Shown: in pieces, positions 5,190 through 20,000 of the stretch
How the letters are laid out: the number at the start of each line of letters is the position of its first letter
Position numbering within the stretch: position 1 is the stretch's first letter
Sequence record: DRR723986_6897
DNA: 20,000 bases
Reading direction: 5' to 3' (one strand)
The notes under the pieces: model-generated
Databases searched by the model: none
What the model was told of the DNA's origin: nothing
The model's input: only the letters and a program-made list of their open reading frames with translations
Program-made: the position numbers and the translations under genes

Positions 5190-7625
5190 TTAACGAAGTC
5201 GCGCAGCGATGGCGTTCAATGTTTCGCCAAGCGCTATAAGCCTTTCCTGTGTTTTAGCGTTTTCGCCTCCAGAAGCAAGGTCTGTAGCCAGTGCTTTCAA
5301 TTGATTTGCAGCACGACGGTTACGATCACCGCTTTCAAGGCTGGCCTCAGAGTTATCAAGCGCCTCATTCAAGTTGGCAACATCAGCCTTTGTCAGGGCA
5401 TTGCTGCGCTGAAGCTGGTCCATATAGGCGCGAGCAATTACCGGCTCGGCAGGCCAACTGACCGTGAATTGTTGCTGCGGGTTAAACACTTTCCCTTGGT
5501 CGGCAATCGTTGCGGCTTCAATTTCATTGGCGGTCAAATACTCGCTAGGTAGCAGGGCCATAACATCCAGGCCGCGCACAATTTCAGTGCCGTAAATTTT
5601 GCCCTTGTACCAATAGGTTGACCAGAAACCGCCGGTCACCAACACGTCTTCATGAATCGGTCCTCGGTCAAAGAAAGCAATTTCAACCGGGTTTGCAGAA
5701 TCGGTGAAGTCAATCACAGACAGGCCGCCCTGGTACCAAGCTTGCACGAAGATGTCTCGGCCCGGTACTGGCAGCGCAGAACCATTATGCGCCACACAAT
5801 TTTCAGTTTCTGACTGCGGAGCAGGCAACTTAAAGCGGCCTTTATATTCCAGCTTGCGATCAACGATGTCATAGAACACATCAGCGCCCCATGTTTTAGG
5901 GTCATGCGCCAAGCAGCGCGGACGTCCGCCGCCGCCCCACTCGTCGGTAAACAATACCTTGGTGCCGTCATTGTTGAAGGTGGCAGAGTGCCAATAAGCA
6001 AAACCGGGGTCTGTTACCGCGTCAATGCGGGTTGGGTTCAGCGGGTCAGAAATATCAAAGATAATGCCGTTACCCGAGCAGGCCCCTGCGGCAATTTTGG
6101 CGGCTGGGAATACCGTAATATCGTGGCATTGGTCTGTTTCGCTGGTTTCCTGTGTGTTGTCACCGTGGTCACCGCCTTGCCACAAACCGCCAAGCCTGCC
6201 GGTTTCGGGGTCTGCAAATACGGCTGGGCTGCTTACAATGCGAGACTGCGACGGGTCATCAACCGGAATTTCAATAACGTCAATGCGGAACAGAGCGGTT
6301 CTTTCATCACCCGGCACTCGGCCGACGCAGCCGGCCAGCTCCTCTTCGCTGCGCACAGAAGACGTGCCTGAGTTATAGACAATGATTTTGCCGTCTGTGC
6401 CTGGCCCGGACACAACCGAATGGGTGTGGGAGCCGCGGCATGTTTGCACCTGACCAACCTGCCTTGGTCGTCTTAGGTCGCTAATGTCAAAAATACGAAG
6501 GCCGCGGAAACGATCAGCACTGACATCTTCGCTGATACCTTGCAGGCCGCAATCAACCCGGCCGCGGGTCTGCTCCACTGACATGATCAGCAAGTCACCA
6601 ACAATGGAGATGTCTCCTTGTCCGCCGGGGCAAACGACAGAACTATAGAGTTTGGGCATACCGTCATCTTGCAGTTGGTATACGTTGAACCCATGATAGC
6701 TGCCCACAACCAGTTTATCGCCAGCGAAGGCCATGTCGGTGTTGGAAAAGCTCATGAACGGCGAGCGTTCACCGCGTTGAACTTCTTGTTCTTCGCCGCT
6801 CTCATCTGCATCGGTATCATCGGCTTCAATAACCGGGGGCAGGTCGGACGGATTGTTAGGGTCAAAAAATCCGGCAGGGCGGGGTAGCGTGGTCACAAGC
6901 TCAACATTCATTGCGGCCTCGCCCGCATCCCGGAACCCGGCTTTCAGGCCTGCGCGCGGATCATCTGACAATCCAACCAGCAGTGTCGTCATGCGCTTGA
7001 TTTCAGATGTTTGGTCGTTGGTAATGTCGCTAACAAATTCATACAAAATGGGATCGTAGGCCGAGCCAGATTGACTTAGCAGGTCGTTCACCATGGTGAT
7101 TGCGCCTTTATGGTGGGCAATCATTAATTCAAGAAACATACGGTCAAAATCGGTAGCAGTTGCCTCAGCTAATGCTGCCATTTGCGCAGGAGAAGCCATG
7201 CCAGCCATATCATGTGACATGTGCATGGCGTGATGCGCGGTTGGTGTGGGTTTGGCCTCGCCGCGCGCTTCAAGCCACTCTTGCATAAATTTAATTTCGT
7301 CTGCCTGCGAGGCATCAATGCGTCCGGCGATATCAATCAGTTCTGTTGTATTGGTGCGGTCTGCGACGAGCGCAGCCATTTGCACAGCTTGGTTATGGTG
7401 CGGGATCATATCCTGCATAAAGCGCACATCGGCGCTGGAATAGCTGTTGTTGGCGATCTCAATGGCTTTTTTTGCATCAAGCGCTTGTGCGGGCTTGCCC
7501 GGCGCACCCGGTTGCACAATGGGTGCGTCCTGCGCTGCAGCCATGCCTGCGTGTGCCATTAACGCCATGCTAACAGTTGCAGTTAAACAATATTTGCGAA
7601 AACCGTTTGTTTGAAATCTGATCAT
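5190..7625 (-). CDS. Exported DUF305 (ferritin-like) domain plus LVIVD-repeat beta-propeller protein
   Basis: Signal peptide from the ATG at 7625 (ORF track starts at 7664). DUF305 motifs DVRFMQDMIPHHNQAVQMA and FDRMFLELMIAHHKGA. LVIVD-like repeats GLRIFDISD, IIFDISDPLNP and LSVIDFTDSANP. Confidence 0.88.
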   Translation of the reverse strand: MIRFQTNGFRKYCLTATVSMALMAHAGMAAAQDAPIVQPGAPGKPAQALDAKKAIEIANNSYSSADVRFMQDMIPHHNQAVQMAALVADRTNTTELIDIAGRIDASQADEIKFMQEWLEARGEAKPTPTAHHAMHMSHDMAGMASPAQMAALAEATATDFDRMFLELMIAHHKGAITMVNDLLSQSGSAYDPILYEFVSDITNDQTSEIKRMTTLLVGLSDDPRAGLKAGFRDAGEAAMNVELVTTLPRPAGFFDPNNPSDLPPVIEADDTDADESGEEQEVQRGERSPFMSFSNTDMAFAGDKLVVGSYHGFNVYQLQDDGMPKLYSSVVCPGGQGDISIVGDLLIMSVEQTRGRVDCGLQGISEDVSADRFRGLRIFDISDLRRPRQVGQVQTCRGSHTHSVVSGPGTDGKIIVYNSGTSSVRSEEELAGCVGRVPGDERTALFRIDVIEIPVDDPSQSRIVSSPAVFADPETGRLGGLWQGGDHGDNTQETSETDQCHDITVFPAAKIAAGACSGNGIIFDISDPLNPTRIDAVTDPGFAYWHSATFNNDGTKVLFTDEWGGGGRPRCLAHDPKTWGADVFYDIVDRKLEYKGRFKLPAPQSETENCVAHNGSALPVPGRDIFVQAWYQGGLSVIDFTDSANPVEIAFFDRGPIHEDVLVTGGFWSTYWYKGKIYGTEIVRGLDVMALLPSEYLTANEIEAATIADQGKVFNPQQQFTVSWPAEPVIARAYMDQLQRSNALTKADVANLNEALDNSEASLESGDRNRRAANQLKALATDLASGGENAKTQERLIALGETLNAIAARLR

Positions 7626-7732
7626 TGGACGTGTCCCTTTAAACCTAAGTTTGACCCAGTTCACACGTTACCCGATTTTGCCAAAAAGGCAAAAAGGATG
7701 GTGTTTAGCTTCTTGCTCGGCGCTCACTCCAT

Positions 7733-7775
7733 TTGTCCGGACAAGAAAGAGGGCGCATAATCTCGTGTCCTGACA
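7733..7775 (+). promoter_or_regulatory. Sigma70-like promoter overlapped by two palindromic operators
   Basis: TTGTCC(7733-7738)-N17-CATAAT(7756-7761). Palindromes TTGTCCGGACAA (7733-7744) and TGTCCTGACA (7766-7775), with centres 32 bp apart. Confidence 0.65.
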
Positions 7776-7855
7776 GCTTATTTCTCGCAAAATGTATTGC
7801 GGTTCAACATATTTGTTGCATCAAAAAATAAACGATCAAAACGCGAGGAAACAAA

Positions 7856-8998
7856 ATGAAAAAAGCAATGACAGTCGCCCTTATGGGCGCAAGCCTCTTC
7901 AGTGGTGCTGCACAGGCATATAAGGGTATGGAAAACCTAAATATTGAGGCCATTTGCGCCAGCGAGGCCATCGAATGTTTGATGAGCGATGCGGGCGTCG
8001 TGGTTGGTAGGCCCGGCTCAACAGCTGCATATTCAGCAGGCATCGATAGAGCCGCCGCTAGCTTTGAGCGGTTTTTTGGCAGTGAAGCACCTAAGGCGGC
8101 GGTAGTGTTGGGTGAAGTGGCAGATGCCGACATTCGTAGCAGTTTGTTGGAAGCTTATCCGGTTGTGTTGCCATGGCTCACCATTAAAGACCGCGAAGCT
8201 ATGGTAGCTAGCGGTGTGCGCGCGGAGGTTTTGCGGCAATATCCTGATATTGACGAAGCAACGCTTGAGGCCACAGTGGCGCGGTCGGTGAAGGCCACCT
8301 TGAATGCAAGTAGTCCCGGTGCAGGTGCAGAAGGTGTCCATGGCAGTGGTGCGGATGATGTGCACCAAGGTGTATTCGCGCACGAGCTTGGCCATTTGTA
8401 TTTCATTGAAACCTTCTGGCCGGAAGAGAATTTGAATGTGCTTGATACTCATGCAGGCGACGTATCCCGCTATGCCGGCCCCGGTCCCGACTGGCTGGAC
8501 GAGATGGCAGCCGTACTAATGGAAAATAAAGCGCTGACAAGGGGCAGGGAGGCTGGCCTTAAAACCGTTTCAGAAAGCGCTGATTTTGGCGCCATATGGC
8601 CGCTTAAAACTTACTTCACCATGGGTCATCCGGCGTTTGAGCAAGCTCGTGCTTTGATAGAAGCGCGACAGAAAACCGCCGCAGGCAGGGCACAAGGCAA
8701 TGTGGTCATCCTGTCACGGGAGGACTTGAACACTCGCGATGATGGTCGCAACGCAGCAATGTTTTACTCACAGTCTCGCGGGTTTGCAGACTATATGATT
8801 GAGACCACAAACAACGAGCAGATTTTTGCAGAAATTGCTAGGTATATTGCTGATGGCGCCAGCATGGAGAGTTGGCTACAAAAGTTTGGCGCATCGCATG
8901 GTCTAGTGAAAACCGTTCCAGCGCTTGAGGCTGATTTTCAGATGTGGCTAAAGGAACGATATAGCGACAGCGAAACTAGTTTGAATAGTCATACCTAG
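7856..8998 (+). CDS. Secreted putative zinc metallopeptidase (HEXXH, gluzincin/peptidase MA-like)
   Basis: Signal peptide ending AQA; FAHELGH; downstream PDWLDEMAA supplying a candidate third-ligand Glu; FYSQS Tyr motif. RBS GAGGA. Confidence 0.7.
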   Translation: MKKAMTVALMGASLFSGAAQAYKGMENLNIEAICASEAIECLMSDAGVVVGRPGSTAAYSAGIDRAAASFERFFGSEAPKAAVVLGEVADADIRSSLLEAYPVVLPWLTIKDREAMVASGVRAEVLRQYPDIDEATLEATVARSVKATLNASSPGAGAEGVHGSGADDVHQGVFAHELGHLYFIETFWPEENLNVLDTHAGDVSRYAGPGPDWLDEMAAVLMENKALTRGREAGLKTVSESADFGAIWPLKTYFTMGHPAFEQARALIEARQKTAAGRAQGNVVILSREDLNTRDDGRNAAMFYSQSRGFADYMIETTNNEQIFAEIARYIADGASMESWLQKFGASHGLVKTVPALEADFQMWLKERYSDSETSLNSHT

Positions 8999-9660
8999 TC
9001 GGGCTTTGATGCCTTGGTCGCCGTATCTGGCACAGTGAGCGCATCGATTAATCGGGCCAATCTGGCTTGGTCTTCGGTGCCGACATGAGACGGTATGCCA
9101 GCACGTTTTAAAAAGGCCCGGCGCTCCTTGGGCGTCAGGCCCGGTGGTATCACGATAACCTGTTCGCCTCTGCCGTCTGCGCGTTCCGGGTGGTCACCGC
9201 GCACCTCAATCAATACTTGAGCAAGGTTATCAACCTCACCAGCTTCAATGCGCCCATTGTCGTTTCGGTCACCGGTTTTAAGTAGCCAGTCAATGGTTTC
9301 TTTATTGGCTGTATTTTCAGCATCTGCGGCTGTAATGGCACCGTCGTCATTTTGGTCAAAGTAGCGCACAACCCGCTCCCCGGTGCTGGCGGGCCTAGTT
9401 TCTTGTTGAACTAGAAAGACACCGACCGCCGTTAGGCTGGCCGTTAAAACCAGACCCAAACCAATCACCAACCATGTTCTGTTCGCCTCACGGCTATTCG
9501 GGTGCAGGACGCCGCCGATATAATTCCGTATGGCATGGCTTGCGGTGGTGCCTGCATTGCGGCAAGCTTCCATAAATGCCAGTTTTTCCGTGTAGGAAAC
9601 GCGCACCTCAATGGTTTCGCTTTTCTTCTCTGACCTAGTTGGTTTTGTGTCTTCGTTCAT
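8995..9660 (-). CDS. Membrane-anchored ribbon-helix-helix-like protein with two C-terminal EF-hands
   Basis: Likely start is ATG 9660 (ORF track starts at 9756). KKSETIEVRVSYTEKLAFMEACRNAGTTASHAIRNYI fits a strand-helix-G-helix RHH pattern. One TM segment WLVIGLGLVLTASLTAVGVFLV. EF loops DQNDDGAITAAD and DRNDNGRIEAGE. Confidence 0.75.
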   Translation of the reverse strand: MNEDTKPTRSEKKSETIEVRVSYTEKLAFMEACRNAGTTASHAIRNYIGGVLHPNSREANRTWLVIGLGLVLTASLTAVGVFLVQQETRPASTGERVVRYFDQNDDGAITAADAENTANKETIDWLLKTGDRNDNGRIEAGEVDNLAQVLIEVRGDHPERADGRGEQVIVIPPGLTPKERRAFLKRAGIPSHVGTEDQARLARLIDALTVPDTATKASKPD

Positions 9661-9801
9661 GGACAAAGTTTGTACCAACGAACCATTTGGTTGCCAAGGG
9701 TTGTTGGCGAAGACATGCAATGACACCCTGAAAATATGCCCTTTTGTTGTATACACTTTGTTACATCAATATATGCTGTGCGTATATTTGAAGTAGGCGA
9801 G

Positions 9802-10656
9802 ATGAAAGACCCAACAATGCAAAACCATGTTGAACCAGACCAAGATGAAACATCATTGCAGGATGATGATCAGCAAGTTGCAATAGCCAAGCGAGTACGT
9901 CCTGCAGATGTTTATGATGCAATTCTTGAGGAAGGCGAGGAAGAGCTGGAACGCGGATTTGGTGCTCTATGGTGGTCTGGTATTGCCGCTGGTCTTTCAA
10001 TGGGGTTTTCTGTCGTTGCATCTGCAGCTCTGGCCGCAGCACTTGGGCATGATGCTTGGGTTCATCCCATCGTGAGCATCGGCTACACAGCTGGTTTTAT
10101 TATCGTCATTTTGGCGCGGCAGCAGCTATTCACGGAAAACACCATTACGGCACTTCTCCCGGTCATCACCCATCATTCCTGGGCAACTATGATTCATATG
10201 TTGCGATTGTGGGGCATTGTGTTTGTGGCAAATATTGTTGGCGCAATTGTTTTTGCTTGGGCAACGCAATTGAATGCCTTGTTTGCACCAGAAATCAGAG
10301 CAGAATTCCTGATACTGGGAGAGCATCTATTTGAAAATTCACGCTTGCAAATGTTTGTTAAAGGCATTGCGGCAGGATGGCTTATTGCTGCATTGGTTTG
10401 GGTTATTCCATCTTTACAAGGGGGGAAGTTCTTGGTGATCATGTTTTTTACTTGGCTCATTGCGTTGGGCGGGTTTACGCATATTATCGCAGGTTCAATC
10501 GAGAGCTTTCACATGCTTTTTGTCGGCGCCATAACCCCAAATCAATTAGTCTTTGATTTCATGCTGCCTACATTGCTTGGCAATATCGTTGGCGGTAGTG
10601 CGATTTTTTCTCTTATCAGTTATGCACAGGTGCGCCGCGAAGTTGATGCATTATGA
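9802..10656 (+). CDS. Formate/nitrite transporter (FNT) family protein, YfdC-like
   Basis: About six TM helices; motifs GEEELER, SGIAAGLSMGFS, QLFTENT, HIIAGS and GNIVGG. Start at 9802 or 9817. Confidence 0.9.
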   Translation: MKDPTMQNHVEPDQDETSLQDDDQQVAIAKRVRPADVYDAILEEGEEELERGFGALWWSGIAAGLSMGFSVVASAALAAALGHDAWVHPIVSIGYTAGFIIVILARQQLFTENTITALLPVITHHSWATMIHMLRLWGIVFVANIVGAIVFAWATQLNALFAPEIRAEFLILGEHLFENSRLQMFVKGIAAGWLIAALVWVIPSLQGGKFLVIMFFTWLIALGGFTHIIAGSIESFHMLFVGAITPNQLVFDFMLPTLLGNIVGGSAIFSLISYAQVRREVDAL

Positions 10657-10730
10657 ATATTCAATTGTCACATCGGAAAGTAAGTTAACAGACCAAAACA
10701 GCAAGATGGCGATACAATATAGATAATTAT

Positions 10731-11495
10731 CTATATTGGTTCTGTTTCAAGCATGGCTTGTAATTCGGCCACATCAGCGATGTCGTCCGGGTCGGTGAGT
10801 GATTGCACAATCTCATTCAATGTGGCACCGAGCTGCGGATAGCGGCACTCTCGTTCCTCAATCAATATACCGCATATGGTTGAAAGCTCCAGCGCCAGTG
10901 CTGCGGCATCTTTTTTGTTGGGGCTGTGGCGACGCATATACTCCATAACTTTTAGGAAGGTTTCTTCCGTGACGGTGGCAGCGATTTTCTCAAAGGTATA
11001 ATCGGTCATATACTCGTCGCGGAACGCATGCTCGTGCGTCAGCAAATCGCGGATATAACTTTCCAGATTGTCATACTGCGGCAGCACGTCCTGCAGCTTA
11101 GTGCTTTGCAACAAGGTTTCACATAGGCACTTTGATGCAACAGTCAGATTCAGCTGATCAGGCTCAATAACCACAAAAGATGCAGATGTGCGCATGCCAG
11201 CTACATTGCTATTTTCGATGTTTCTATATGCAGCAATAAATTTGTGTGCGTCTGCCGGAGCGGCAAATTCCAACGCTATCTGCGCATCGATACTACCCGA
11301 AAGAAACAACGGTGCGCTCACCGACCCGACGCCGCGTAAATAAACGGAAACTTCAGAGGGTGTTTCAAAGCCATGCCGAAAGAATAGATGCCCAGTTTTA
11401 CCTGCCGCGCCCATAAGTGATTTAAAGTTCCGGTAGCCTTCGACACCGGCGCATGTGAGGTCTAAACCAGTTAAATTATAAGCAGCTACAGGCAT
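10731..11495 (-). CDS. Hypothetical cytoplasmic protein
   Basis: A 254-aa ORF fills the gap between neighbours and has normal composition. No motif recognised. Confidence 0.7.
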   Translation of the reverse strand: MPVAAYNLTGLDLTCAGVEGYRNFKSLMGAAGKTGHLFFRHGFETPSEVSVYLRGVGSVSAPLFLSGSIDAQIALEFAAPADAHKFIAAYRNIENSNVAGMRTSASFVVIEPDQLNLTVASKCLCETLLQSTKLQDVLPQYDNLESYIRDLLTHEHAFRDEYMTDYTFEKIAATVTEETFLKVMEYMRRHSPNKKDAAALALELSTICGILIEERECRYPQLGATLNEIVQSLTDPDDIADVAELQAMLETEPI

Positions 11496-11564
11496 ATTGA
11501 GCGCTTGTTATTGTCTGTCATTTTAGGTGTTTTCTGAAAACTGGCAGATGCTATGCCGAGTAAA

Positions 11565-13298
11565 CTACTGATCATATGGCGTTTCATAAACCACCTGCCC
11601 TTCGAAAATGGTTTTGTCTACTGTTACATCAAGAACAGACGTGGCCGAAATTTTGGTTAAGTTGTTAGATAGTATGATCATATCTGCCATCTTGCCAACG
11701 GTAATAGATCCGCGAGAATCGTCCATAAAATTGGCATATGCGCCGCCCATTGTATAGGCGTAGATGGCTTCTTCAATGGTAATGCGTTCCTCCGGAATCC
11801 ACGGTTCAATATACCCTTCCTGCGTGTCTTGGCGGGTTATAGCCGCATGCATGCCAGCGAATGGGCTCATAACGGCCACATCCCAATCGCTTGCAAAGGC
11901 AATGGTTGCGCCGCTGTCCAATAAGGAGCGCCACGGAAAGGCATAGCGTGACCGGCTTTCTCCTACAGCCACGCGCCAAATATCGCCGCCGCCTATTGTT
12001 GCGTGGCGCGGCTGCATGTCGGCAATAACGCCCAGTTCGCCGAAACGCGGAATATCATCCGGGTGCAATACTTCCACATGGACAAGCTGGTGGCGTCTGT
12101 CTTTGGGGCCATTGGTATTATTTGCATACTCAAGAGCATCCAATGCCACCTGAATGCCGCGGTCTCCAATGGCATGAATGAACAATTGAAAGCCCTGTGC
12201 ATCAAGGTTGGCGACAAGTTTTTTGAAAGCATCAGGCTTAAAAAAAGTGTCGCCCTTGTTGTGGCCTTGATCGCTGTAGGGCGCCAGCATCGCGGCGGTG
12301 TGAGTTTCTATAACATCGTCGATATATAGCTTAATAGCGGGTACATGAATTTGGTGATCATTCGCCCGCTCATCACGTATCGCAGCATAAGCCGCCACGT
12401 CTTCGGCAGGTGTTCCCGGTGGGTGAAACATTGCCATATGAACATGGGCGTTCAGGTCGCCGTCTTGTTGCACACGGTCCCACTTGGCAAAGTCATCAAA
12501 GCCATTTTGCGGTTCAATGATGGTCGTAATGCCATTTGATGTGGCCTCATCAAGATAGCCTTTGAACCATGTGTGAACCAGGGCTGGGTCTGGTTCAGGC
12601 AAAATAGAATATAGCGCATCAGCCTCTTCTTCGGTGATGTTAAGCGAACCTTTAAATATGCCGGTTGGGGTGCCGTTTTCGCCGCGTACAATGGTACCGA
12701 AAGGCACTTTGTGTGTGTTTGCTTTTATGCCCAGTGCGTTCATGGCGGGCTTGTTCAAATATGTTGTATGGCCGTCATAAGATGTAATCATGATAGGGCG
12801 ACCACCGCTCAACCCTTCCAGGTCACGCCACGTGGGCAAGCCGTCCGGGTGGGTGCCATATTGCCAGCGGCCCCCCACAAGCCACGCGCGTTCTGGGTGG
12901 TTTTCCGCATAATCACGGATCATTTGCCTGAATGTTTCGGGCGAGTTTGCTTCGGTTAAGTCCATAAAGTCAGGGTCGGGCGTATAGCTCAGGTGGGTAT
13001 GGCTGTCTATAATGCCGGGCATCACGAAGCGACCATTGGCGTCAATTACTCGCGTGTTGTCGTTGGTGTATGCGGCAATGCCTGCGTTATCACCAACAAA
13101 TACAATGCGTTTGTCTTTCACGGCAATGGCTTGAGCACGAGGCGTGTTAGGGTCTACGGTATAAACATCAGCATTCACAATAATCAGATCGGCCTTTGGT
13201 GTCATTGTGGGGTGCTGTGATTGGGCGGCATATGAGCCAGCCATAAGGCCTGCTAGAGCAAGGGGTTTGAGCCATTTTCTATGTGTATGCAGTTGCAT
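11565..13298 (-). CDS. Exported amidohydrolase family 3 (YtcJ-like) metal-dependent hydrolase
   Basis: Motifs ADLIIVNA, MPGIIDSHTH, HAIGDRG, LVHVE, ASDW, YTMGGAYA and GKMADMIIL. Signal-like N-terminus. ATG 13298 follows AAGGA. Confidence 0.93.
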   Translation of the reverse strand: MQLHTHRKWLKPLALAGLMAGSYAAQSQHPTMTPKADLIIVNADVYTVDPNTPRAQAIAVKDKRIVFVGDNAGIAAYTNDNTRVIDANGRFVMPGIIDSHTHLSYTPDPDFMDLTEANSPETFRQMIRDYAENHPERAWLVGGRWQYGTHPDGLPTWRDLEGLSGGRPIMITSYDGHTTYLNKPAMNALGIKANTHKVPFGTIVRGENGTPTGIFKGSLNITEEEADALYSILPEPDPALVHTWFKGYLDEATSNGITTIIEPQNGFDDFAKWDRVQQDGDLNAHVHMAMFHPPGTPAEDVAAYAAIRDERANDHQIHVPAIKLYIDDVIETHTAAMLAPYSDQGHNKGDTFFKPDAFKKLVANLDAQGFQLFIHAIGDRGIQVALDALEYANNTNGPKDRRHQLVHVEVLHPDDIPRFGELGVIADMQPRHATIGGGDIWRVAVGESRSRYAFPWRSLLDSGATIAFASDWDVAVMSPFAGMHAAITRQDTQEGYIEPWIPEERITIEEAIYAYTMGGAYANFMDDSRGSITVGKMADMIILSNNLTKISATSVLDVTVDKTIFEGQVVYETPYDQ

Positions 13299-13445
13299 AG
13301 CCACTTCCTTCGCATTGCGGTCTAATCAAAAGCCTATATTAGCTGGCATTGGTTTTCAAATGGGCGCGGCATATGCGCAGGATTGCCCTGCACGGCAAAA
13401 CCAATGTAATAAGATACATCAACCCATCAATCAGGCGAAACATGC

Positions 13446-14168
13446 GTGAGCGACAATAAAAACACAAATGATGCGATCGATCCGGATATCCTGTCGGCTC
13501 AGCATTCCAGCACGCTTTGCCAAGCCTGCGGTATCTGTTGCAGTGGCACGCTTTTCTCTTATGTGGACGTCAGCCCAAAAGAAGCAAAAGCCCTAATCGG
13601 CACATGCGTTACGCCTGTTAAAAATGACAAGGGCAAGCTGGCGTTTGACCTGCCCTGCAGCGCCCTTGAGGGAACCCGCTGCACCATTTATGACAAGCGC
13701 CCGACAGCGTGCCGCACTTATTTATGTGGCCTCACGAGAGGGGTGATGAACGGCAGTACAAGTCTTGAGGCCGCCACTGCTGCAGTTGCGGACATTAAAG
13801 CCAAGCGAGCATGGTTGTTGGAGAATGCGCCGCTGGATATTTTGCTAACATATGCTTTGCCAGCAAAAGGAAAGCCCACTGGGCGCGAGGCGGAAGTGCC
13901 CAAGTCTGCCACAGCAATCCTTGCAGCATTCAGCAGCACAAGCAGCCCATCACAAGCCGCTTCTGCGGCGTCAAAAGCGCCCCAATCGCTCAGGGTTTTA
14001 TTGGCTGAACTTTATGGATGTTTCACGCGTAAGCAACAGGTTGAAGGGCTAAGTGCCTCGGATAAAACATATATTGCTGCGGCCTTTTCCTATGCCAAAA
14101 TTGCGGACCGCATGTTTGAGAAAACCCCGCTTTTGCGCACCTACGGCACGCTGGTGCAGCAGTTTTAG
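13446..14168 (+). CDS. YkgJ family cysteine cluster (CxxCxxCC) protein
   Basis: CQACGICC followed by PCSALEGTRCTIYDKRPTACRTYLC. Confidence 0.88.
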   Translation: MSDNKNTNDAIDPDILSAQHSSTLCQACGICCSGTLFSYVDVSPKEAKALIGTCVTPVKNDKGKLAFDLPCSALEGTRCTIYDKRPTACRTYLCGLTRGVMNGSTSLEAATAAVADIKAKRAWLLENAPLDILLTYALPAKGKPTGREAEVPKSATAILAAFSSTSSPSQAASAASKAPQSLRVLLAELYGCFTRKQQVEGLSASDKTYIAAAFSYAKIADRMFEKTPLLRTYGTLVQQF

Positions 14169-14190
14169 GCTGGTTTGAATGGGAAGCCCG

Positions 14191-14748
14191 ATGAAAAAGA
14201 TTCTAGTAGCCTGCATATTACTGAACACATTGCTTGCCGGTTCTTCGGTTTTTGCGCCGGTTGCGGCAGACGCCCCGCTGGAGACAGTGCCCTTCGTTGA
14301 CCTGCAGCGCTACGCCGGCAAGTGGTATGAAATCGCCCGCCTTGAACAGCGGTTTCAAAAAGGCTGCATCAACAGCACCGCAGAGTATAGTTTCCGCGAT
14401 GACGGTGACATTCGGGTGGTTAATGAATGCGAGATTGCCGGCAAGGACAAACGCAAAAAAGCTACCGGCAGGGCGTGGGTAAAAGACAGTGAAACCAATG
14501 CGAAACTGCGAGTGCAATTTGTTCTTACCGGTCTGAAGCTTTCATTTCTGTCCGGTAAATATTGGGTTTTGGACTTAGCTCCGGATTATAGCCATGTAAT
14601 GGTAGGTGACCCCTCACGCAAATATTTTTGGCTGTTGTCTCGCAACTCGGAAATGGATGATGCCTTGCGTGCTGACCTAATGGCCAAAGCACAGGCTATG
14701 GGTTTTGACACATCAGCTTTTGTGATCAATGCTGAGCAAACGGAGTGA
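14191..14748 (+). CDS. blc: Bacterial lipocalin (Blc-like)
   Basis: Motifs VDLQRYAGKWYEIAR, AEYS, YWVLDLAPDYS and WLLSR. Signal peptide without a usable lipobox Cys. Confidence 0.88.
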   Translation: MKKILVACILLNTLLAGSSVFAPVAADAPLETVPFVDLQRYAGKWYEIARLEQRFQKGCINSTAEYSFRDDGDIRVVNECEIAGKDKRKKATGRAWVKDSETNAKLRVQFVLTGLKLSFLSGKYWVLDLAPDYSHVMVGDPSRKYFWLLSRNSEMDDALRADLMAKAQAMGFDTSAFVINAEQTE

Positions 14749-14755
14749 GCCAGTT

Positions 14756-15238
14756 TTAACGCGCGGGCGTGACATATTCCTGGAGAGTTACACTGTCGGG
14801 AATCGGCTGGTTTGGCCCTAGCCGTGTTGAATGCAGCATTTCAATAAGCCAGCGATCACCGTATTTTACCAAAACCGCGCTTTCCAGCCACTTTATAGTT
14901 TGTGTCTGACCATTAGGAAAAGTGAAAAGGGCGCGATTCCAATAGCTAACCCATGCCCTATCACCGCTAACCTTGGACGTAATGACAGCAAAGAAATTAC
15001 GCCGGGTTGTATTTTCGTCGCCGCCTGTCACGACTGATATCAGCTTATCCATGTCCCACACTTCGCCCACCTCAAGCAGCTCAAAGTCATCGGTAGATGT
15101 AGCCTTCATGGCACCGCCGTCGTAGGCGCTCATGGCCGCAAACAGGTCTTGAACCGCAGAAAACGGCTGTCGCGCCTCCTGGGCATGAAGAGTGCTGGAC
15201 CACAGCAACACCGCGACCGTGAGTATAAGCTTATGCAT
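14756..15238 (-). CDS. Exported NTF2-like (DUF4440/SnoaL) protein
   Basis: Signal peptide ending LHA; pattern AVQDLFAAM...TDDF...GDRAWVSY...LVKYGDRWLIEMLHS. RBS GAGGAG before ATG 15238. Confidence 0.8.
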   Translation of the reverse strand: MHKLILTVAVLLWSSTLHAQEARQPFSAVQDLFAAMSAYDGGAMKATSTDDFELLEVGEVWDMDKLISVVTGGDENTTRRNFFAVITSKVSGDRAWVSYWNRALFTFPNGQTQTIKWLESAVLVKYGDRWLIEMLHSTRLGPNQPIPDSVTLQEYVTPAR

Positions 15239-15342
15239 GGCTGGTCTCCTCAATAGCTTGTTGCATGGTGCTGCCTGAATAACTTTGTTGATCGTTTCTG
15301 ACCTGCCGATTAGTCTACCGCTACGCTAAGAAGGAGTATAGG

Positions 15343-15741
15343 GTGAAGCTGCTCAACATATTAACGATAGCCTTGACGGGCTTGTTGTTGCTTTCGGCCT
15401 GTTCGGACCCAGCCCCCAGTGAACCTGCACAAACCGACGACATAGACCCTCGCTTTGTGGGTGACGCCACGCTCACGGTCACCGGCATGCCTGAGGGTGC
15501 GCGTGTCGTCACAATGGCTTGGTTTCCCGGCCGGAAAGACGATGACCCGCAGGGTGTTATTTACAAATATTCAGACGGCGTGACTGTGCCTGCAGGCAAG
15601 TATATTTTCCTCATTGAAGGGGAAGGCTTTGAGGCTCTCATGGCGCGGCGCATACCCGTGTATGGCAACACGGTGCTGGAAGCCAAAATGTGCAAGCTGG
15701 ACAGCGGCTGTTACGGCACGCTGACCGAGGTTTCGCATTAG
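15343..15741 (+). CDS. Hypothetical lipoprotein
   Basis: Lipobox LLSAC after a hydrophobic stretch; strong RBS AAGGAG; beta-rich body (VPAGKYIFLIEGEGF) resembling a small beta-sandwich. Confidence 0.75.
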   Translation: MKLLNILTIALTGLLLLSACSDPAPSEPAQTDDIDPRFVGDATLTVTGMPEGARVVTMAWFPGRKDDDPQGVIYKYSDGVTVPAGKYIFLIEGEGFEALMARRIPVYGNTVLEAKMCKLDSGCYGTLTEVSH

Positions 15742-15744
15742 GCA

Positions 15745-15775
15745 CGTCACCTTCGGCTTCGGCTTGGTATGAACT
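15745..15775 (+). repeat. Junction repeat copy A (GTATGAACT core)
   Basis: CGTCACCTTCGGCTTCGGCTTGGTATGAACT aligns with 19884-19912 at 26/31 columns (manual alignment). Confidence 0.75.
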
Positions 15776-15893
15776 ACCGACACGCAGGTTTTCAATTGGT
15801 TGCTTAGTACGTTGAATTTCAATAGTTTTGCTTTTGCAAAGAGTTTGCAAGGGCATTTAAGCAAGCTCACTCATAAAATCGAAGGAGCCTTTG

Positions 15894-17081
15894 GTGTCAT
15901 CTGCTTTTACCAGTAAATTGCCAAATTTAGAGACCAGTATTTTCACTGAAATGTCGGTAATGGCAAACCAGCATCAAGCGATTAATTTATCTCAAGGCTT
16001 CCCTGAATTTGATACGCCCGCGTTTTTGAAAGATAAAATTAACCAAGCCATTAGTGAGGGGAACAATCAATACGCCCCCTCAAATGGTTTGCCTGAATTG
16101 TTAACGCAAATTGCCGAAATGGTGCACCGGCATTATCAAACTGAATTACCTGCTGAACAAAAACTCGATGGTTTAACGGGCGTTACTATCACGTCAGGCG
16201 CAACGGAAGCTTTATGGGTCGCCATACAAACCCTTGTGCGCAAAAATGATGAAGTGATTGTTTTTGATCCCGCCTACGACTCTTATGAACCTGCCGTTGA
16301 GCTTGCAGGCGGCGTGTGTCGCCATATTGCGCTTGAGGCCCCAAGCTATGCAATAAATTGGCGGGTGGTAGAACAAACTATTAATGCCAATACACGCGCG
16401 ATTATAATTAACAACCCGCACAATCCAACGGGTTCAATACTGAGCCAGTCTGATCTTATTACGCTGCAGGCACTCGCCGAAAAATATGATTTGTATGTCA
16501 TCAGCGACGAAGTATACGAGCACATGACCTTTGATGGCATGCGGCATGAGAGTGTTTTACGGTACCCTGAGTTATTCCGGCGCGCCTTTGTCATCTCCAG
16601 TTTTGGCAAAACCTTTCATTGTACCGGCTGGAAAATGGGCTACTGCGCCGCACCAAATGAGCTTTCTGCCGAGTTCAGAAAAGTTCATCAATACGTCACC
16701 TTTTGCACCTTTACCCCTGCGCAAATAGCCATTGCACACATGCTGAAAGAGCAGCCATCCCATATCACCGGTTTGGCAGGTTTTTATCAACAAAAACGAG
16801 ATCTACTCGTTAACGCCCTAGAGGGCTCTCGCTTTACGATCCTGCCATCAAAAGGCACTTATTTTTTGCTATTGGATTATTCAGCGATATCAACACTGGG
16901 TGACCGTGAGTTTTGCGAGTGGTTAACGAAAGAAATAGGCGTTGCCGCTATTCCTCTCAGTCCTTTTTACCAATCGGAACAACGGGCTGATTATCTTGAA
17001 AATAATAAAGTGATACGGCTGTGTTTTGCTAAAAACGACGACACTTTACTGAAAGCAGCAGAAATATTGTGTCAGCTTTAG
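15894..17081 (+). CDS. ybdL: PLP-dependent class I/II aminotransferase, methionine/kynurenine aminotransferase YbdL-like
   Basis: Motifs SKLP...SIF, AINLSQGFP, NQYAP, NNPHNPTG, SDEVYEH, and PLP lysine in SSFGKTFHCTGWKMGY. C-terminus RLCFAK. GTG 15894 lies 6 nt after AAGGAG (ORF track starts at 15891). Confidence 0.92.
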   Translation: MSSAFTSKLPNLETSIFTEMSVMANQHQAINLSQGFPEFDTPAFLKDKINQAISEGNNQYAPSNGLPELLTQIAEMVHRHYQTELPAEQKLDGLTGVTITSGATEALWVAIQTLVRKNDEVIVFDPAYDSYEPAVELAGGVCRHIALEAPSYAINWRVVEQTINANTRAIIINNPHNPTGSILSQSDLITLQALAEKYDLYVISDEVYEHMTFDGMRHESVLRYPELFRRAFVISSFGKTFHCTGWKMGYCAAPNELSAEFRKVHQYVTFCTFTPAQIAIAHMLKEQPSHITGLAGFYQQKRDLLVNALEGSRFTILPSKGTYFLLLDYSAISTLGDREFCEWLTKEIGVAAIPLSPFYQSEQRADYLENNKVIRLCFAKNDDTLLKAAEILCQL

Positions 17082-17101
17082 CCATGGCAGACTTGACATT
17101 G

Positions 17102-17150
17102 CCCAGTATGAACTGCGGGCAAAGCCGCGATCGCAGGAACCATTAAAAAA
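17102..17150 (+). repeat. Junction repeat copy B (GTATGAACT core)
   Basis: GTATGAACTGCGGGCAAAGCC (17106-17126) matches 19904-19924 at 19/21. Weaker similarity continues through AGGAA to an A-run. Confidence 0.75.
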
Positions 17151-17183
17151 TTCCGGGTAGTTTCCCGAGGTGCGAAAGGGTTT

Positions 17184-18335
17184 TTAAAGGCCACTTTCAT
17201 CAAGTTTCTTGATCTGCTCACAGGCTGCAGAAAAACGATTATCGCACGCTTTTGTATAGAGAATGCGGGCAACTTCCAGGTCCGTATCAACCCCCAAACC
17301 ATCACGGTACAAGTTTGCGAGGTCGTTGCAACCATGCGAACGGCCACCATCACAGGCCTCAGTGTAAAAGCGGTGTGCTGCGGCATAGTCTTTGGGCATG
17401 CCTTCGCCAGACTGGCTCAGATGCCCAAGGCCAACACAACCTTCAAGCATTTTGTCATTGCAGGCTGCTTGGTATATCTCGCGCGCTGCAGCAGGGTCTT
17501 TCGCAATACCCCGTCCGGTTTCATACATGCTGCCGGCGCTAAAACAGGCACTTTCCCGATTGCTGTTACACGCTGTTTTAAACAGTTCAACCGCGCGGGC
17601 GCCGTCTTGCGTCACACCAAATCCATCGCGGTAAAGACCTGCCAAATTAATGCAGGCACTATTGTTTTTGCCTTCACAGGCCTTGTCGTACAGCCCGGCT
17701 GCAAGTCCAGAGTCTTGTGCACCTCCACGACCGTTGAGATACTGATTGCCTAAATTGTTGCAGGCGATAAAGTCATTGCCGTCGCATGCTTTCTTGTAGA
17801 ATTCTCTGGCACGCGCCTGATTTTTTTCAACGCCTTGACCCCGAACATACAAGACAGCCAAATTATTGCAGGCACCGGCGTTTCCGCCGGCACAGCCTGC
17901 TTCATAAAATTGGCGGGCTTGGCTAAAATTCTTGGCCTTTACGGCATTCAGGCCGTCGGTAAATGCCTTTTTGGCATTTGCTGCAAGCCCTTTGTCGATT
18001 TTCAGCAACAGCGGCGCAAGCTCGCGCTGCAGGCTGGTATCGGCATCAGAGGAATAGAACTCGTCAATTTTTACTTTCGCTTCTGCGAACCGCTTCAGAC
18101 CAGTCAGAATTTTTACCTCAAGCGCTAAAAAACGGGCATCAGTTTTGCCGCGCAACTCCTCGGCCCGCTTAAGGGCATTCAGCGCATCGCTGAAGTTGCC
18201 GTTTGTGAAGGCGTCTTCTGCTGCGAAATAATAGGCACGTGCCTGCGCCGAATTACCGGACTGCGCCTGTGCAAAAGGTGCGGCAAGCGTTGACAAAGCG
18301 GCAATCAGATATAGAGCCAATAATTTTTTACCCAT
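17184..18335 (-). CDS. Exported Sel1-like repeat (Hcp-type, Cys-paired) protein with N-terminal TPR
   Basis: Signal peptide ending AQA; about six 36-aa repeats of the form ACNNLAVLYVRGQGVEKNQARAREFYKKACDG. Confidence 0.93.
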   Translation of the reverse strand: MGKKLLALYLIAALSTLAAPFAQAQSGNSAQARAYYFAAEDAFTNGNFSDALNALKRAEELRGKTDARFLALEVKILTGLKRFAEAKVKIDEFYSSDADTSLQRELAPLLLKIDKGLAANAKKAFTDGLNAVKAKNFSQARQFYEAGCAGGNAGACNNLAVLYVRGQGVEKNQARAREFYKKACDGNDFIACNNLGNQYLNGRGGAQDSGLAAGLYDKACEGKNNSACINLAGLYRDGFGVTQDGARAVELFKTACNSNRESACFSAGSMYETGRGIAKDPAAAREIYQAACNDKMLEGCVGLGHLSQSGEGMPKDYAAAHRFYTEACDGGRSHGCNDLANLYRDGLGVDTDLEVARILYTKACDNRFSAACEQIKKLDESGL

Positions 18336-18407
18336 TTTAAATACACCTTCCCAAGAACCTGATTATTGACCTTCGTTTACGACACTTCCACAGTATACAT
18401 GTTTTGG

Positions 18408-19721
18408 TTACCACTGCAGCTTGCCACCAATTTTGATATACTCGTCAAAGTCTTCGATAAGCTCGATATTGTTAGAGCGTGCGTAGCGTCGCACCTCTGA
18501 TAAAAACTTTCTACACCTGCGGTCTGAGATGCCAAAGTACCCTTTTTTCTTTGGTGCAATGATCCAGTTCCCGTCGTGGTCCATGAGGCCCTCAGACCAA
18601 ACTTCAAGGGATGTCCAAGCCTGCAACGCCCCTCTGAAAGGGCCGCTTTTTGCCACGGCGCAGGTGTAGTCCTTGGACTCGGTAGGTTTCGCGACCTTAG
18701 CAACCCCGTCCCTGTAGGAAAGTATCAGAGTTTTTGAGAAAGGGATGATCATTCTGCCATTTGATGACCTGACGCCCCATTCTTTATTGTCATTTTTGAC
18801 AATTTCAAATGTTTGGCTTTTTTCTGCGTCTACTGGTGAGGCCTTCTTTTTTTCGGTCACCTTAGGCTCAGGCTTTTTCCAGCAGTCGCTACTTTGGTCA
18901 GGACACGCCCAGAAATCATCCTCGTTTGATGTGCTTTCCCGTGATTCTTCCTCATCCTCATCACCCCAGAAATCGTCTTCTTCTTGTTCTGCCTCTTCCT
19001 CCTCTCTTTTCAGATACTCTTTCTGAATACGGTCGAGTGCGGCGAAGGGAACTTCCAGCGTGTCGATGGTAAGTGTGCTGACCCGCAAGCGATCGGCCAA
19101 ATTCAGCGTGTTGCTGGCTGCTTCTTCCGCCTCAGCCCCGCTTGGCAAATAGTTCCATTTGATGAAGCTTTGGGTGTTCCGTGGGCTACTTGGGATAATG
19201 TCGGTGCCAAGCTCGCCAGAGCGCCGGATCACCAGATGCGGCACCCGGGAAATGGTTTTGGTGCCGGACGCAAAAATGGGGTTGCTCGAAAGGGAATAAT
19301 TGTTGGGCTGATGATCTCGCCAGTTTTCAGCACTCAGTTGCGCACTATAGGCGAGCACTTGTGTATTCAGGATAATTTCGATCGGCTTTAGGTCGTCAAA
19401 CTGTTCCAACAGGTCGGGATATTTTTCAAGGTCGCTACGCCTGATCGGTGGCTTGCCACTGCGGCGGATAACCTCGCCCATTTGCCAGCGCAAGGCATAG
19501 GATTCGACCGGCTGTCCAAAGAAGCCTGCCCATTTAAAGGATATTTCCAGCTCCCGCACAAAGCCTTGCGTATGGCCGGAGACTATATCCGCTGGCACCT
19601 GCACTTTGCCCTGAAAGCTACTGTCCTCGGCTCTCGGAACATCTGTGTAGGTTTGTGCAAACGCTGTGCTAGTGATCAGCGTCAAAGCAGCTAAAACAAT
19701 CGATATAATCCGTAAGGACAT
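18408..19721 (-). CDS. Exported hypothetical protein with acidic linker and C-terminal WG-like repeats
   Basis: Signal peptide ending AFA; acidic tract containing EDDFW twice; KEWGVRSSNGRMIIPF and GLMDHDGNWIIAPK resemble WG/KWG repeats. Confidence 0.75.
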   Translation of the reverse strand: MSLRIISIVLAALTLITSTAFAQTYTDVPRAEDSSFQGKVQVPADIVSGHTQGFVRELEISFKWAGFFGQPVESYALRWQMGEVIRRSGKPPIRRSDLEKYPDLLEQFDDLKPIEIILNTQVLAYSAQLSAENWRDHQPNNYSLSSNPIFASGTKTISRVPHLVIRRSGELGTDIIPSSPRNTQSFIKWNYLPSGAEAEEAASNTLNLADRLRVSTLTIDTLEVPFAALDRIQKEYLKREEEEAEQEEDDFWGDEDEEESRESTSNEDDFWACPDQSSDCWKKPEPKVTEKKKASPVDAEKSQTFEIVKNDNKEWGVRSSNGRMIIPFSKTLILSYRDGVAKVAKPTESKDYTCAVAKSGPFRGALQAWTSLEVWSEGLMDHDGNWIIAPKKKGYFGISDRRCRKFLSEVRRYARSNNIELIEDFDEYIKIGGKLQW

Positions 19722-19883
19722 ATACCCCTATTCCCGATAGCGACCCCCAAGGCCATATCTCAGTGTAAACAGATTAACCTGAACGCACACTAAACAAACA
19801 ATTAGGAATTGTCAGATCAACTTTTTGATAAAATTTGGTGGGAGTTGTGGCCGATTAGGCTCGCTAGGGCTCTCGCCCCTTCT

Positions 19884-19950
19884 CGCCACCTTCGCTACGC
19901 TCGGTATGAACTGAGAGCAAAGCCACTACCCAGAAGGAATTACAAAAAAA
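19884..19950 (+). repeat. Junction repeat copy C (longest copy), adjacent to the tRNA terminator
   Basis: Its left part matches 15745-15775 and its right part matches 17106-17126. The two matches overlap at GTATGAACT (19904-19912). Confidence 0.75.
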
Positions 19951-19974
19951 GCCAGTCCGAAGGCTGGCCTTTTT
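19944..19974 (-). terminator. Intrinsic terminator downstream of the tRNA, possibly bidirectional
   Basis: A7-GCCAGTC-CGAA-GGCTGGC-c-T5. The minus strand gives a cUUCGg-capped hairpin (one mismatch) followed by U7. Confidence 0.75.
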
Positions 19975-19976
19975 AA

Positions 19977-20000
19977 TGGTGCCCGGGGGCGGATTTGAAC
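19977..20000 (-). tRNA. 3' end of a tRNA, probably tRNA-Phe (partial; anticodon outside the window)
   Basis: The minus strand reads GTTCAAATCCGCCCCCGGGCACCA: T-loop TTCAAAT, T-stem arm CCGCC, acceptor arm CCCGGGC, discriminator A, encoded CCA. This resembles proteobacterial tRNA-Phe ends, but Leu is not excluded. Confidence 0.85.

Follow-up and report, generated by a model that had tools for sequence, protein, structure and literature searches.

The stretch of DNA analysed here (sequence record DRR723986_6897, 20,000 nucleotides, called the window below) contains near its right end three copies of the nonamer GTATGAACT, each situated at a border between gene blocks, and the question raised by this locus is what these copies are. 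An earlier note, made from the sequence alone, had taken them for the crossover cores of a candidate cassette-accretion system lying next to a tRNA gene and matching neither a standard tRNA island nor an integron. Comparison with related loci yields a more ordinary answer. With a probability of roughly 0.8, the three sites are what is left of an array of islands that arose by tandem accretion at the tRNA-Phe gene, lost its integrases and decayed, rather than an unknown system. The tRNA-Phe(GAA) gene at the end of the window serves as an integration hotspot, the host being a Kordiimonas-like alphaproteobacterium.

The P4-type tyrosine integrases insert islands into tRNA genes. The tRNA is restored from the island DNA, and its displaced 3' part is left as a direct repeat at the far end of the island. 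Repeated insertion stacks both the islands and the tRNA fragments, a process known as tandem accretion.

The host is called Kordiimonas-like because ybdL and the neighbouring genes of the window match Kordiimonas loci, the aminotransferase encoded by ybdL at about 90% amino acid identity and the neighbouring genes, such as the DUF305 gene at 5190–7664, at 75–78% nucleotide identity. The loci of relatives denoted L001–L007 come from Kordiimonas genomes and metagenome-assembled genomes, and the comparison at the family level covers 45 genomes of the Kordiimonadaceae.

The nonamer and the unit that contains it

An exact search of the window finds GTATGAACT at positions 15767, 17106 and 19904 (below, copies A, B and C), always on the plus strand. 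Only 0.09 copies are expected, and three or more were seen in none of 200 dinucleotide shuffles; the threefold recurrence is real and not due to chance. A relaxed 11-mer pattern with up to two mismatches has five matches in the window against 4.0 expected, with no credible extra copy among them. According to the list of open reading frames (ORFs), all three copies are intergenic: A lies between a 132-amino-acid ORF (stop at 15741) and ybdL (start at 15891), B between the stop of ybdL (17081) and that of a Sel1-repeat gene (17184), and C between the start of a gene for a 437-amino-acid protein (19721) and the tRNA (19977). Copies B and C are 85% identical over 26 nucleotides, while A and C have a common block, CACCTTCG..GGTATGAACT, with two small gaps. 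In all this the earlier note was right: the copies are direct and intergenic, and the similarities of the arms are about as it had described them.

The nonamer is a part of a longer unit, U, of about 115–140 nucleotides, which directly follows the 3' end of tRNA-Phe in all Kordiimonas-type loci. The unit opens with the last 19 nucleotides of the tRNA, ending in GGATT; these are followed by a U-left part of 40–55 nucleotides ending in ..TCGGTA, the TGAAC motif, a U-right part of about 35 nucleotides and, finally, an A-run, a GC hairpin and a T-run, after which comes either the next tRNA copy or the tRNA itself. The GGATT and TGAAC motifs are the two halves of the T loop, cut as ..GGATT / GAAC.. 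A profile of U for nhmmer, built from ten units of relatives, matches the window at three places only, all on the plus strand:

19841–19975, copy C, profile positions 4–131, E = 1.8e-28
17076–17155, copy B, profile positions 30–111, E = 5.8e-9
15730–15774, copy A, profile positions 21–68, E = 3.3e-4

By these matches C is the full unit, in line with its earlier description as a complete site, B its right part, and A a left-middle part fused to the body of a tRNA. The profile spans of A and B overlap by about 39 positions, which does not fit the clean split into a left and a right hybrid arm proposed earlier. Inside this unit of about 130 nucleotides, GTATGAAC is the join of the insert of about 50 nucleotides with the GAAC half of the T loop, and it therefore reappears with each piece of U. 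The nonamer ends in a T that is a tRNA base in copy A (the CTACC allele) and unrelated sequence in B and C. Thus the nonamer is better described as a junction within U than as a crossover core. Outside the core, A and B have little in common in the window, as stated earlier, but this is not true of the relatives, where the left flank of B carries the same CACCTTCGCTTTGCTC block. Indeed, the U-containing piece after ybdL in L004, L005, L006 and L104 still has the left flank ..CCACCTTCGCTTTGCTCAGTATGA.., missing from copy B of the window through a small deletion.

The U-right part faintly resembles the 5' half of tRNA-Phe (..GGGTAGC..), as seen both at 19857–19943 of the window and in the units of L145–L149. 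The whole unit may be an old tRNA-Phe pseudogene with an insert in the T loop.

The genome-wide copy number of the repeat was judged from the genomes of relatives. In five related genomes, all four BLAST matches with E < 0.01 fall in the ybdL/tRNA-Phe locus, and the 19 weaker ones (E from 0.02 to 6) are short and scattered. A sequence-only covariance model applied to the 45 family genomes has matches in 20 of them at E up to 1e-3; in the 13 genomes where the best E is 1e-6 or lower, the best match is in the tRNA-Phe locus by coordinates, most of these cases having been confirmed by reading the sequence. Even in the distant members G023, G020, G041, G008 and G045, a full unit of the same architecture adjoins tRNA-Phe. 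A scan of metagenomes with the U pattern matched 38 stretches, 32 of them by chance. Of the six truly homologous ones, among them the contig of L001 once more, all but L112 have ybdL, tRNA-Phe or both; L112 is a 1.2-kb piece with only a part of U. Two pattern scans of a viral collection gave no match and one chance match, respectively, that is, no free or viral form.

These data bear on the simplest competing explanation, by which the sites are a dispersed repeat of the repetitive extragenic palindromic (REP) or miniature inverted-repeat transposable element (MITE) kind, or a chance recurrence, with no link to block boundaries. The motif is indeed short and lies in intergenic DNA near hairpins. 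Yet the shuffles do not reproduce three copies, the window has no further ones, and the significant matches in both the five related genomes and the 45 family genomes, as well as the homologous metagenome stretches apart from L112, are bound to the one locus. Hence this explanation is hardly credible, and the sites are homologous and locus-specific, as the earlier note had supposed when it named a high-copy repeat as the result that would have spoken against it.

One could also imagine that U has a non-coding function, as a small RNA gene or as a terminator or insulator module of tRNA-Phe, and that the sites are its local duplicates rather than scars. The full-length unit beside tRNA-Phe in distant family members would suit such a role, as would the A-run, hairpin and T-run with compensatory changes closing each unit. 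On the other hand, consensus folds of U on both strands support no helix besides the terminator hairpin, and positions 15000–20000 of the window have no Rfam match at E up to 1. Moreover, an RNA gene accounts neither for the copy of the tRNA 3' end that opens each unit nor for the 27 nucleotides of tRNA body in copy A. We regard this explanation as very unlikely.

The tRNA-Phe origin of the repeats

The window breaks off within a tRNA-Phe(GAA) gene, of which it contains the 3'-terminal 24 nucleotides. All 24 agree with tRNA-Phe of L001–L007, where tRNA-Phe(GAA) occupies the equivalent position, encoded on the minus strand. So short a piece of the gene escapes ARAGORN, which reports no tRNA for the window. 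The tRNA-Phe sequence was searched with short words against the window and seven related loci, and the tRNA positions below are counted from its 3' end.

The right arm of copy A (15770–15796) corresponds to tRNA-Phe positions 20–46, with 24 of 27 nucleotides matching tRNA-Phe of the clade and 25 of 27 the allele of G030, another member of the family, whose CTACC state it shares. The absence of a duplicated tRNA 3' end, asserted earlier, therefore does not hold. The orthologous site in L001 is even clearer: tRNA positions 1–19 are followed by a 52-nucleotide insert and then by positions 20–46, and both segments coincide with the G030 allele (19/19 and 27/27, or 46/46 in total), including the compensatory T-stem pair GGTAG/CTACC. 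Thus this fragment once belonged to a working tRNA.

Such fragments are common at the locus. In relatives, tRNA 3' fragments of 19, 41 and 47–48 nucleotides are stacked on the 3' side of tRNA-Phe, and orthologous fragments of 19 to 48 nucleotides occur in L001–L007, L104, L135 and L136, with at least three in a row in L005 and L007. A fragment reaching the anticodon loop precedes ybdL in eight of the nine Kordiimonas-type loci read at this place (the window, L001, L002, L004–L007 and L104); L003 has no tRNA-Phe fragment upstream of ybdL, and L122 retains only a badly decayed piece. In copies B and C the tRNA-Phe remnants are strongly decayed or partial. The sites are thus repeats derived from tRNA-Phe, which is the signature of tRNA-targeted islands; the earlier statement that they match no standard island of this kind is not supported. 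The parts of the window derived from the tRNA and from U are as follows.

15723–15739, plus strand: decayed remnant of the tRNA-Phe 3' end (..CCGAGG..ATT), overlapping the last codons of the 132-amino-acid ORF; it aligns with TGGTGCCCGAGGGTAGATT of L001 and is weak when taken alone
15740–15769, plus strand: left arm of copy A, where a U-left insert of reduced length (AGGCACG..CTTGGTA) splits the T loop; matched by the U profile, with orthologous sites in L001, L002 and L122
15770–15796, plus strand: right arm of copy A, tRNA-Phe of the CTACC allele, extending from the T loop (TGAAC) to the anticodon loop and including the T stem, the variable loop and the anticodon stem
17076–17155, plus strand: copy B, the right part of U after ybdL, with the core at 17106–17114; an orthologous piece follows ybdL in L004, L005, L006 and L104
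17145–17186, no strand assigned: terminator-like module (A-run, imperfect hairpin, T-run) that closes copy B and abuts the stop codon of the Sel1 gene, as judged from the sequence and the place of the terminator in the alignment
19836–19856, plus strand: strongly decayed tRNA-Phe 3' end (TGGTG..GATT) opening U, at the place of the intact 19-nucleotide TGGTGCCCGGGGGCGGATT in L003, L005 and L007
19857–19943, plus strand: copy C, the complete U, consisting of U-left (19857–19906), TGAAC (19907–19911) and U-right, with the core at 19904–19912
19944–19976, no strand assigned: tRNA-Phe terminator (A-run, GC hairpin, T-run), readable in both directions; the sole helix with compensatory changes in 19 aligned units
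19977–20000, minus strand: tRNA-Phe(GAA), the 3'-terminal 24 nucleotides

The family has two tRNA-Phe alleles, one seen in L001–L007 and the other in L105 (11159–11233), L135 (399–473) and L136 (2219–2293). They differ by compensatory pairs, the acceptor stem being GCCCGGG vs GCCCGAG and the T stem GGCGG/CCACC vs GGTAG/CTACC. In L001 and L002, fossil fragments of the "other" allele are found in genomes that now carry the first one. In L007, a direct repeat of about 85 nucleotides (12380–12465 and 13430–13515), formed by a different flank and tRNA-Phe positions 1–19, brackets a 1-kb AT-rich block; this pair looks like the ends of a further related island. In the metagenome contig L122, the last U is followed at 8088–8130 not by tRNA-Phe but by a TGGTGC.. 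stub and then other sequence, and ARAGORN finds no tRNA in the 16 kb of sequence covered; the tRNA may lie beyond a further island.

Gene blocks, their order and the integrases

Between the repeats, the window carries the following genes.

15797–15890, plus strand: leader of ybdL, kept with the gene in all Kordiimonas-type loci; DNA homology to L002–L007 begins at 15798
15891–17081, plus strand: ybdL-type methionine aminotransferase (NF006569, 571 bits at a cut-off of 420; Pfam Aminotran_1_2)
17184–18335, minus strand: Sel1-repeat protein (Pfam Sel1, E = 1.2e-36), with orthologs in L003 and L007 at 76–78% nucleotide identity
18408–19721, minus strand: 437-amino-acid protein, called a WG protein earlier, with no match in Pfam or NCBIfam

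The order of these blocks differs between the relatives, and filled, partly filled and empty states are all seen:

G030: gene, U, tRNA, without ybdL
L004: U, fragment 1–48, ybdL, U piece, tRNA
L001: U remnant, site of the copy A type, ybdL, decayed U, tRNA
L135: ybdL, 150-nucleotide tail, fragment 1–19, U, tRNA
L136: as L135, with a 0.73-kb block between a 1–45 fragment and a 5–19 fragment
L007 and L003: the Sel1 gene and the 437-amino-acid protein gene before ybdL
the window: the Sel1 gene and the 437-amino-acid protein gene after ybdL

In L004, L001 and a contig of run X1, the locus is ybdL–U–tRNA without the Sel1 and 437-amino-acid protein genes. Run X1 consists of public sequencing contigs of a relative with about 87–92% identity, 0.07 of the sampled words having matched. 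One of its contigs follows the window from ybdL through the right arm of B to 17150 and, after 21 letters of a hairpin peculiar to it, picks the window up again at 19970. Homologs of the Sel1 and 437-amino-acid protein genes and of the 132-amino-acid ORF are on other contigs of X1, the homology of the latter ending at 15737; X1 shows another arrangement, not excision.

All three sites coincide with synteny breaks and, as the earlier note had it, with borders of gene blocks; these blocks vary in presence or order among relatives. The breaks, at 15737–15741, at 17150/19970 and 25–40 nucleotides to the left of the core of B, are situated at the edges of the tRNA-derived unit and not inside the nonamer, so that an exchange of cargo precisely at the core, also expected in that note, is not what the relatives display.

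The ybdL product has relatives with about 90% amino acid identity in L001–L007 and 83–85% in Colwellia. The GC content of the gene is 0.447 in the window vs 0.50 for the window as a whole, and 0.41–0.485 vs 0.48–0.56 in the flanks across the Kordiimonas-type loci; in Colwellia, the gene and its flanks agree (about 0.37–0.42), and there is no tRNA within 10 kb. The tree of ybdL included 21 genes, with L021 and L027 kept as outgroups and with L011, the fragment in L135, L133 (a duplicate of L001) and matches at about 50% identity left out. The eleven Kordiimonas-type genes form one clade (100/100) nested among those of Colwellia, sister to L015 (98/99), and this position in the tree indicates a single acquisition from a Colwellia-like donor. 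The gene is present in eight of the 45 family genomes, always by tRNA-Phe. A point of possible modest use to specialists is that ybdL passed once from a Colwellia-like gammaproteobacterium to an alphaproteobacterial lineage and then stayed at the tRNA-Phe locus. The Sel1 and 437-amino-acid protein genes are clearly present in two of the 45 genomes, and the GC content of both matches the genome; the upstream region of the latter gene abuts a tRNA-Phe fragment in the window, L003 and L007.

An intact island with an integrase occupies the same tRNA in L005. A 47-nucleotide copy of the tRNA-Phe 3' end (11576–11622) and the true gene (21006) bound a 9.4-kb island, the two repeats being identical, and positions 11801–13078 encode a P4-type tyrosine integrase with the Arm-DNA-bind_3, SAM_3 and Phage_integrase domains. 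A recombinase supplied from elsewhere, one of the possibilities raised earlier, is thus plausible. The region 11576–21080 of L005 also encodes an AAA_25 protein, a C-5 cytosine methylase, a GHKL-type ATPase (HATPase_c_3) and an O-methyltransferase-like protein, and it looks like a small defence or restriction–modification island.

Taken together, growth by accretion next to the tRNA is supported, and the best-supported scenario is the following. Islands would have integrated successively at tRNA-Phe and then lost their integrase genes; the tRNA fragments would have decayed, and deletion or recombination among the closely spaced repeats would have followed. Copy A is a tRNA-Phe fragment that stands before ybdL and has its T loop split by an insert of about 30–50 nucleotides. 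The ybdL module has as its right end copy B, which corresponds to the right part of a U of about 130 nucleotides, and copy C is the complete U that adjoins tRNA-Phe across the family. The form of copy A could stem either from an L004-like ancestor that lost about 85 nucleotides between two TGAAC motifs, or from the insertion of U-left into a displaced fragment. We infer that integrases made the junctions in this genome, and that later deletions or recombination between repeats produced the hybrid form of copy A and placed the Sel1 and 437-amino-acid protein genes between B and C.

Several observations weigh against this scenario. In the window ybdL comes before the Sel1 and 437-amino-acid protein genes, in L003 and L007 after them, and this difference calls for an extra rearrangement that could not be reconstructed. 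There is no integrase, excisionase or transposase among the 16 ORFs of the 20-kb window by Pfam, and tblastn with the L005 integrase has no match there, as the earlier note had also reported for recombinases; a homologous integrase is present in one of 15 related loci, L005. No intact tRNA fragment follows copy B. The GGATT, GAAC and A-run segments are invariant in all 19 aligned units across the family while the rest drifts, and pure decay does not account for the invariant GGATT/GAAC halves. Finally, U adjoins the tRNA even where ybdL and other, younger-looking islands lie further out (L002, L135, L136), a position not predicted by the rule that the newest island is nearest to the tRNA.

The last two points lend themselves to another reading, in which U is a maintained decoy attachment site: a pseudo-tRNA whose split T loop is held open by the insert of about 50 nucleotides and which is kept across the Kordiimonadaceae, so that integrase-less modules such as that of ybdL are inserted, excised and swapped by an integrase acting in trans at the T loop or at the T/acceptor junction. 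It is in effect the cassette idea of the earlier note with the site redefined. Besides the invariance of GGATT and GAAC and the place of U next to the tRNA, it would fit the copy A sites of the window, L001, L002 and L122, joined exactly at ATT/../TGAAC; the 0.73-kb block that distinguishes L136 from L135 and is bounded by 16–19-nucleotide copies of the tRNA end at the edge of U; the block order varying between species; and the 19-nucleotide copies that match the resident tRNA allele in G030, L135, L005 and L007. But no cognate integrase was found beside any U-bounded block in 15 loci, the viral scans described above revealed no free form, and the boundary between B and ybdL is 25–40 nucleotides to the left of GAAC rather than at it. 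Since all ybdL genes descend from one acquisition, deletions and rearrangements within a single inherited array can account for most of the variation, and the matching of alleles could stem from gene conversion between repeats 133 nucleotides apart. We therefore consider a decoy site unlikely. If it were nonetheless real, modules would be reordered without ever disrupting an essential tRNA, and the GTATGAAC join would be one half of a working core site.

The array of decayed tRNA-Phe islands remains the preferred description. The interpretation given in the earlier note is partly supported, and its apparent new cassette system resolves into an ordinary tRNA hotspot with decayed attachment repeats and integrases. 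For specialists, a Kordiimonas tRNA-Phe hotspot that bears fossil tRNA alleles may be of modest use; a limited search of the literature found no description of genomic islands or tRNA-Phe islands in Kordiimonas. The split-T-loop unit conserved beside tRNA-Phe across the family is the only odd residue after this explanation.

To the left of copy A, the region 7700–15745 is almost devoid of DNA homologs in five relatives, and an older repeat to the left of it could not be placed for this reason. Its right part, 9736–15745 (about 6 kb), encodes a formate/nitrite transporter, an amidohydrolase, a CxxCxxCC protein, a lipocalin, a DUF4440 protein and two family-less ORFs. Neither a tRNA remnant nor one of U turned up there, and this part may be accessory DNA itself. 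The 132-amino-acid ORF does not resemble the genes next to U in G030, so that an orthologous left flank could not be demonstrated.

Comparison with known systems

Of the known systems, integron cassettes are the ones that the window recalls at first sight, with single-gene, promoter-poor blocks in one orientation and a recurring site between them. The differences are the lack of intI in the window and the derivation of the sites from a tRNA gene. An attC reading was also rejected: the window has no tyrosine recombinase, and when folded as single strands (six folds), the three sites do not surpass shuffles (z from −0.26 to +0.80), which agrees with the absence of an attC-type structure reported in the earlier note.

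The closest likeness is to the islands made by tyrosine (P4-type) integrases in tRNA genes. As set out in the part of PMC4383910 on the Islander principle, the ends of an island are marked by a displaced tRNA gene fragment and the regenerated tRNA; the crossover subsites described there are the anticodon loop, the T loop or the T/acceptor junction, and tandem arrays are listed. The window shares the tRNA target and the direct repeats of its 3' part at block boundaries, and the fragments at this locus fit the two crossover classes given in that part of PMC4383910, those of 47–48 nucleotides the anticodon loop and those of 19 nucleotides the T loop. Cargo of foreign composition, as seen for ybdL, is a further shared trait, as is the intact, integrase-bearing example in the relative L005. 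Unlike such islands, the window lacks an integrase, its fragments have either decayed or been interrupted by the T-loop insert of about 50 nucleotides, and its cargo blocks are only 1.3 and 2.7 kb long.

The section of PMC5704250 on accretion, which cites Pavlovic et al. 2004, describes elements that decay to an integrase-less state and then undergo accretion, the resulting cis-mobilizable elements (CIMEs) being stacked by a target gene as blocks without integration genes, with repeats derived from attachment sites between them. The window has the same layout, and the composition of its blocks differs among relatives as well. In that section, CIMEs are defined for relatives of integrative and conjugative or integrative and mobilizable elements (ICEs, IMEs) in Firmicutes, with intact attL and attR, whereas the attachment-derived repeats A and B that flank ybdL are degenerate and hybrid.

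Lastly, the partial, non-functional tRNA copies near the full gene are similar to the tRNA gene fragments of prokaryotic genomes, as these are presented in the relevant portion of PMC9897764.

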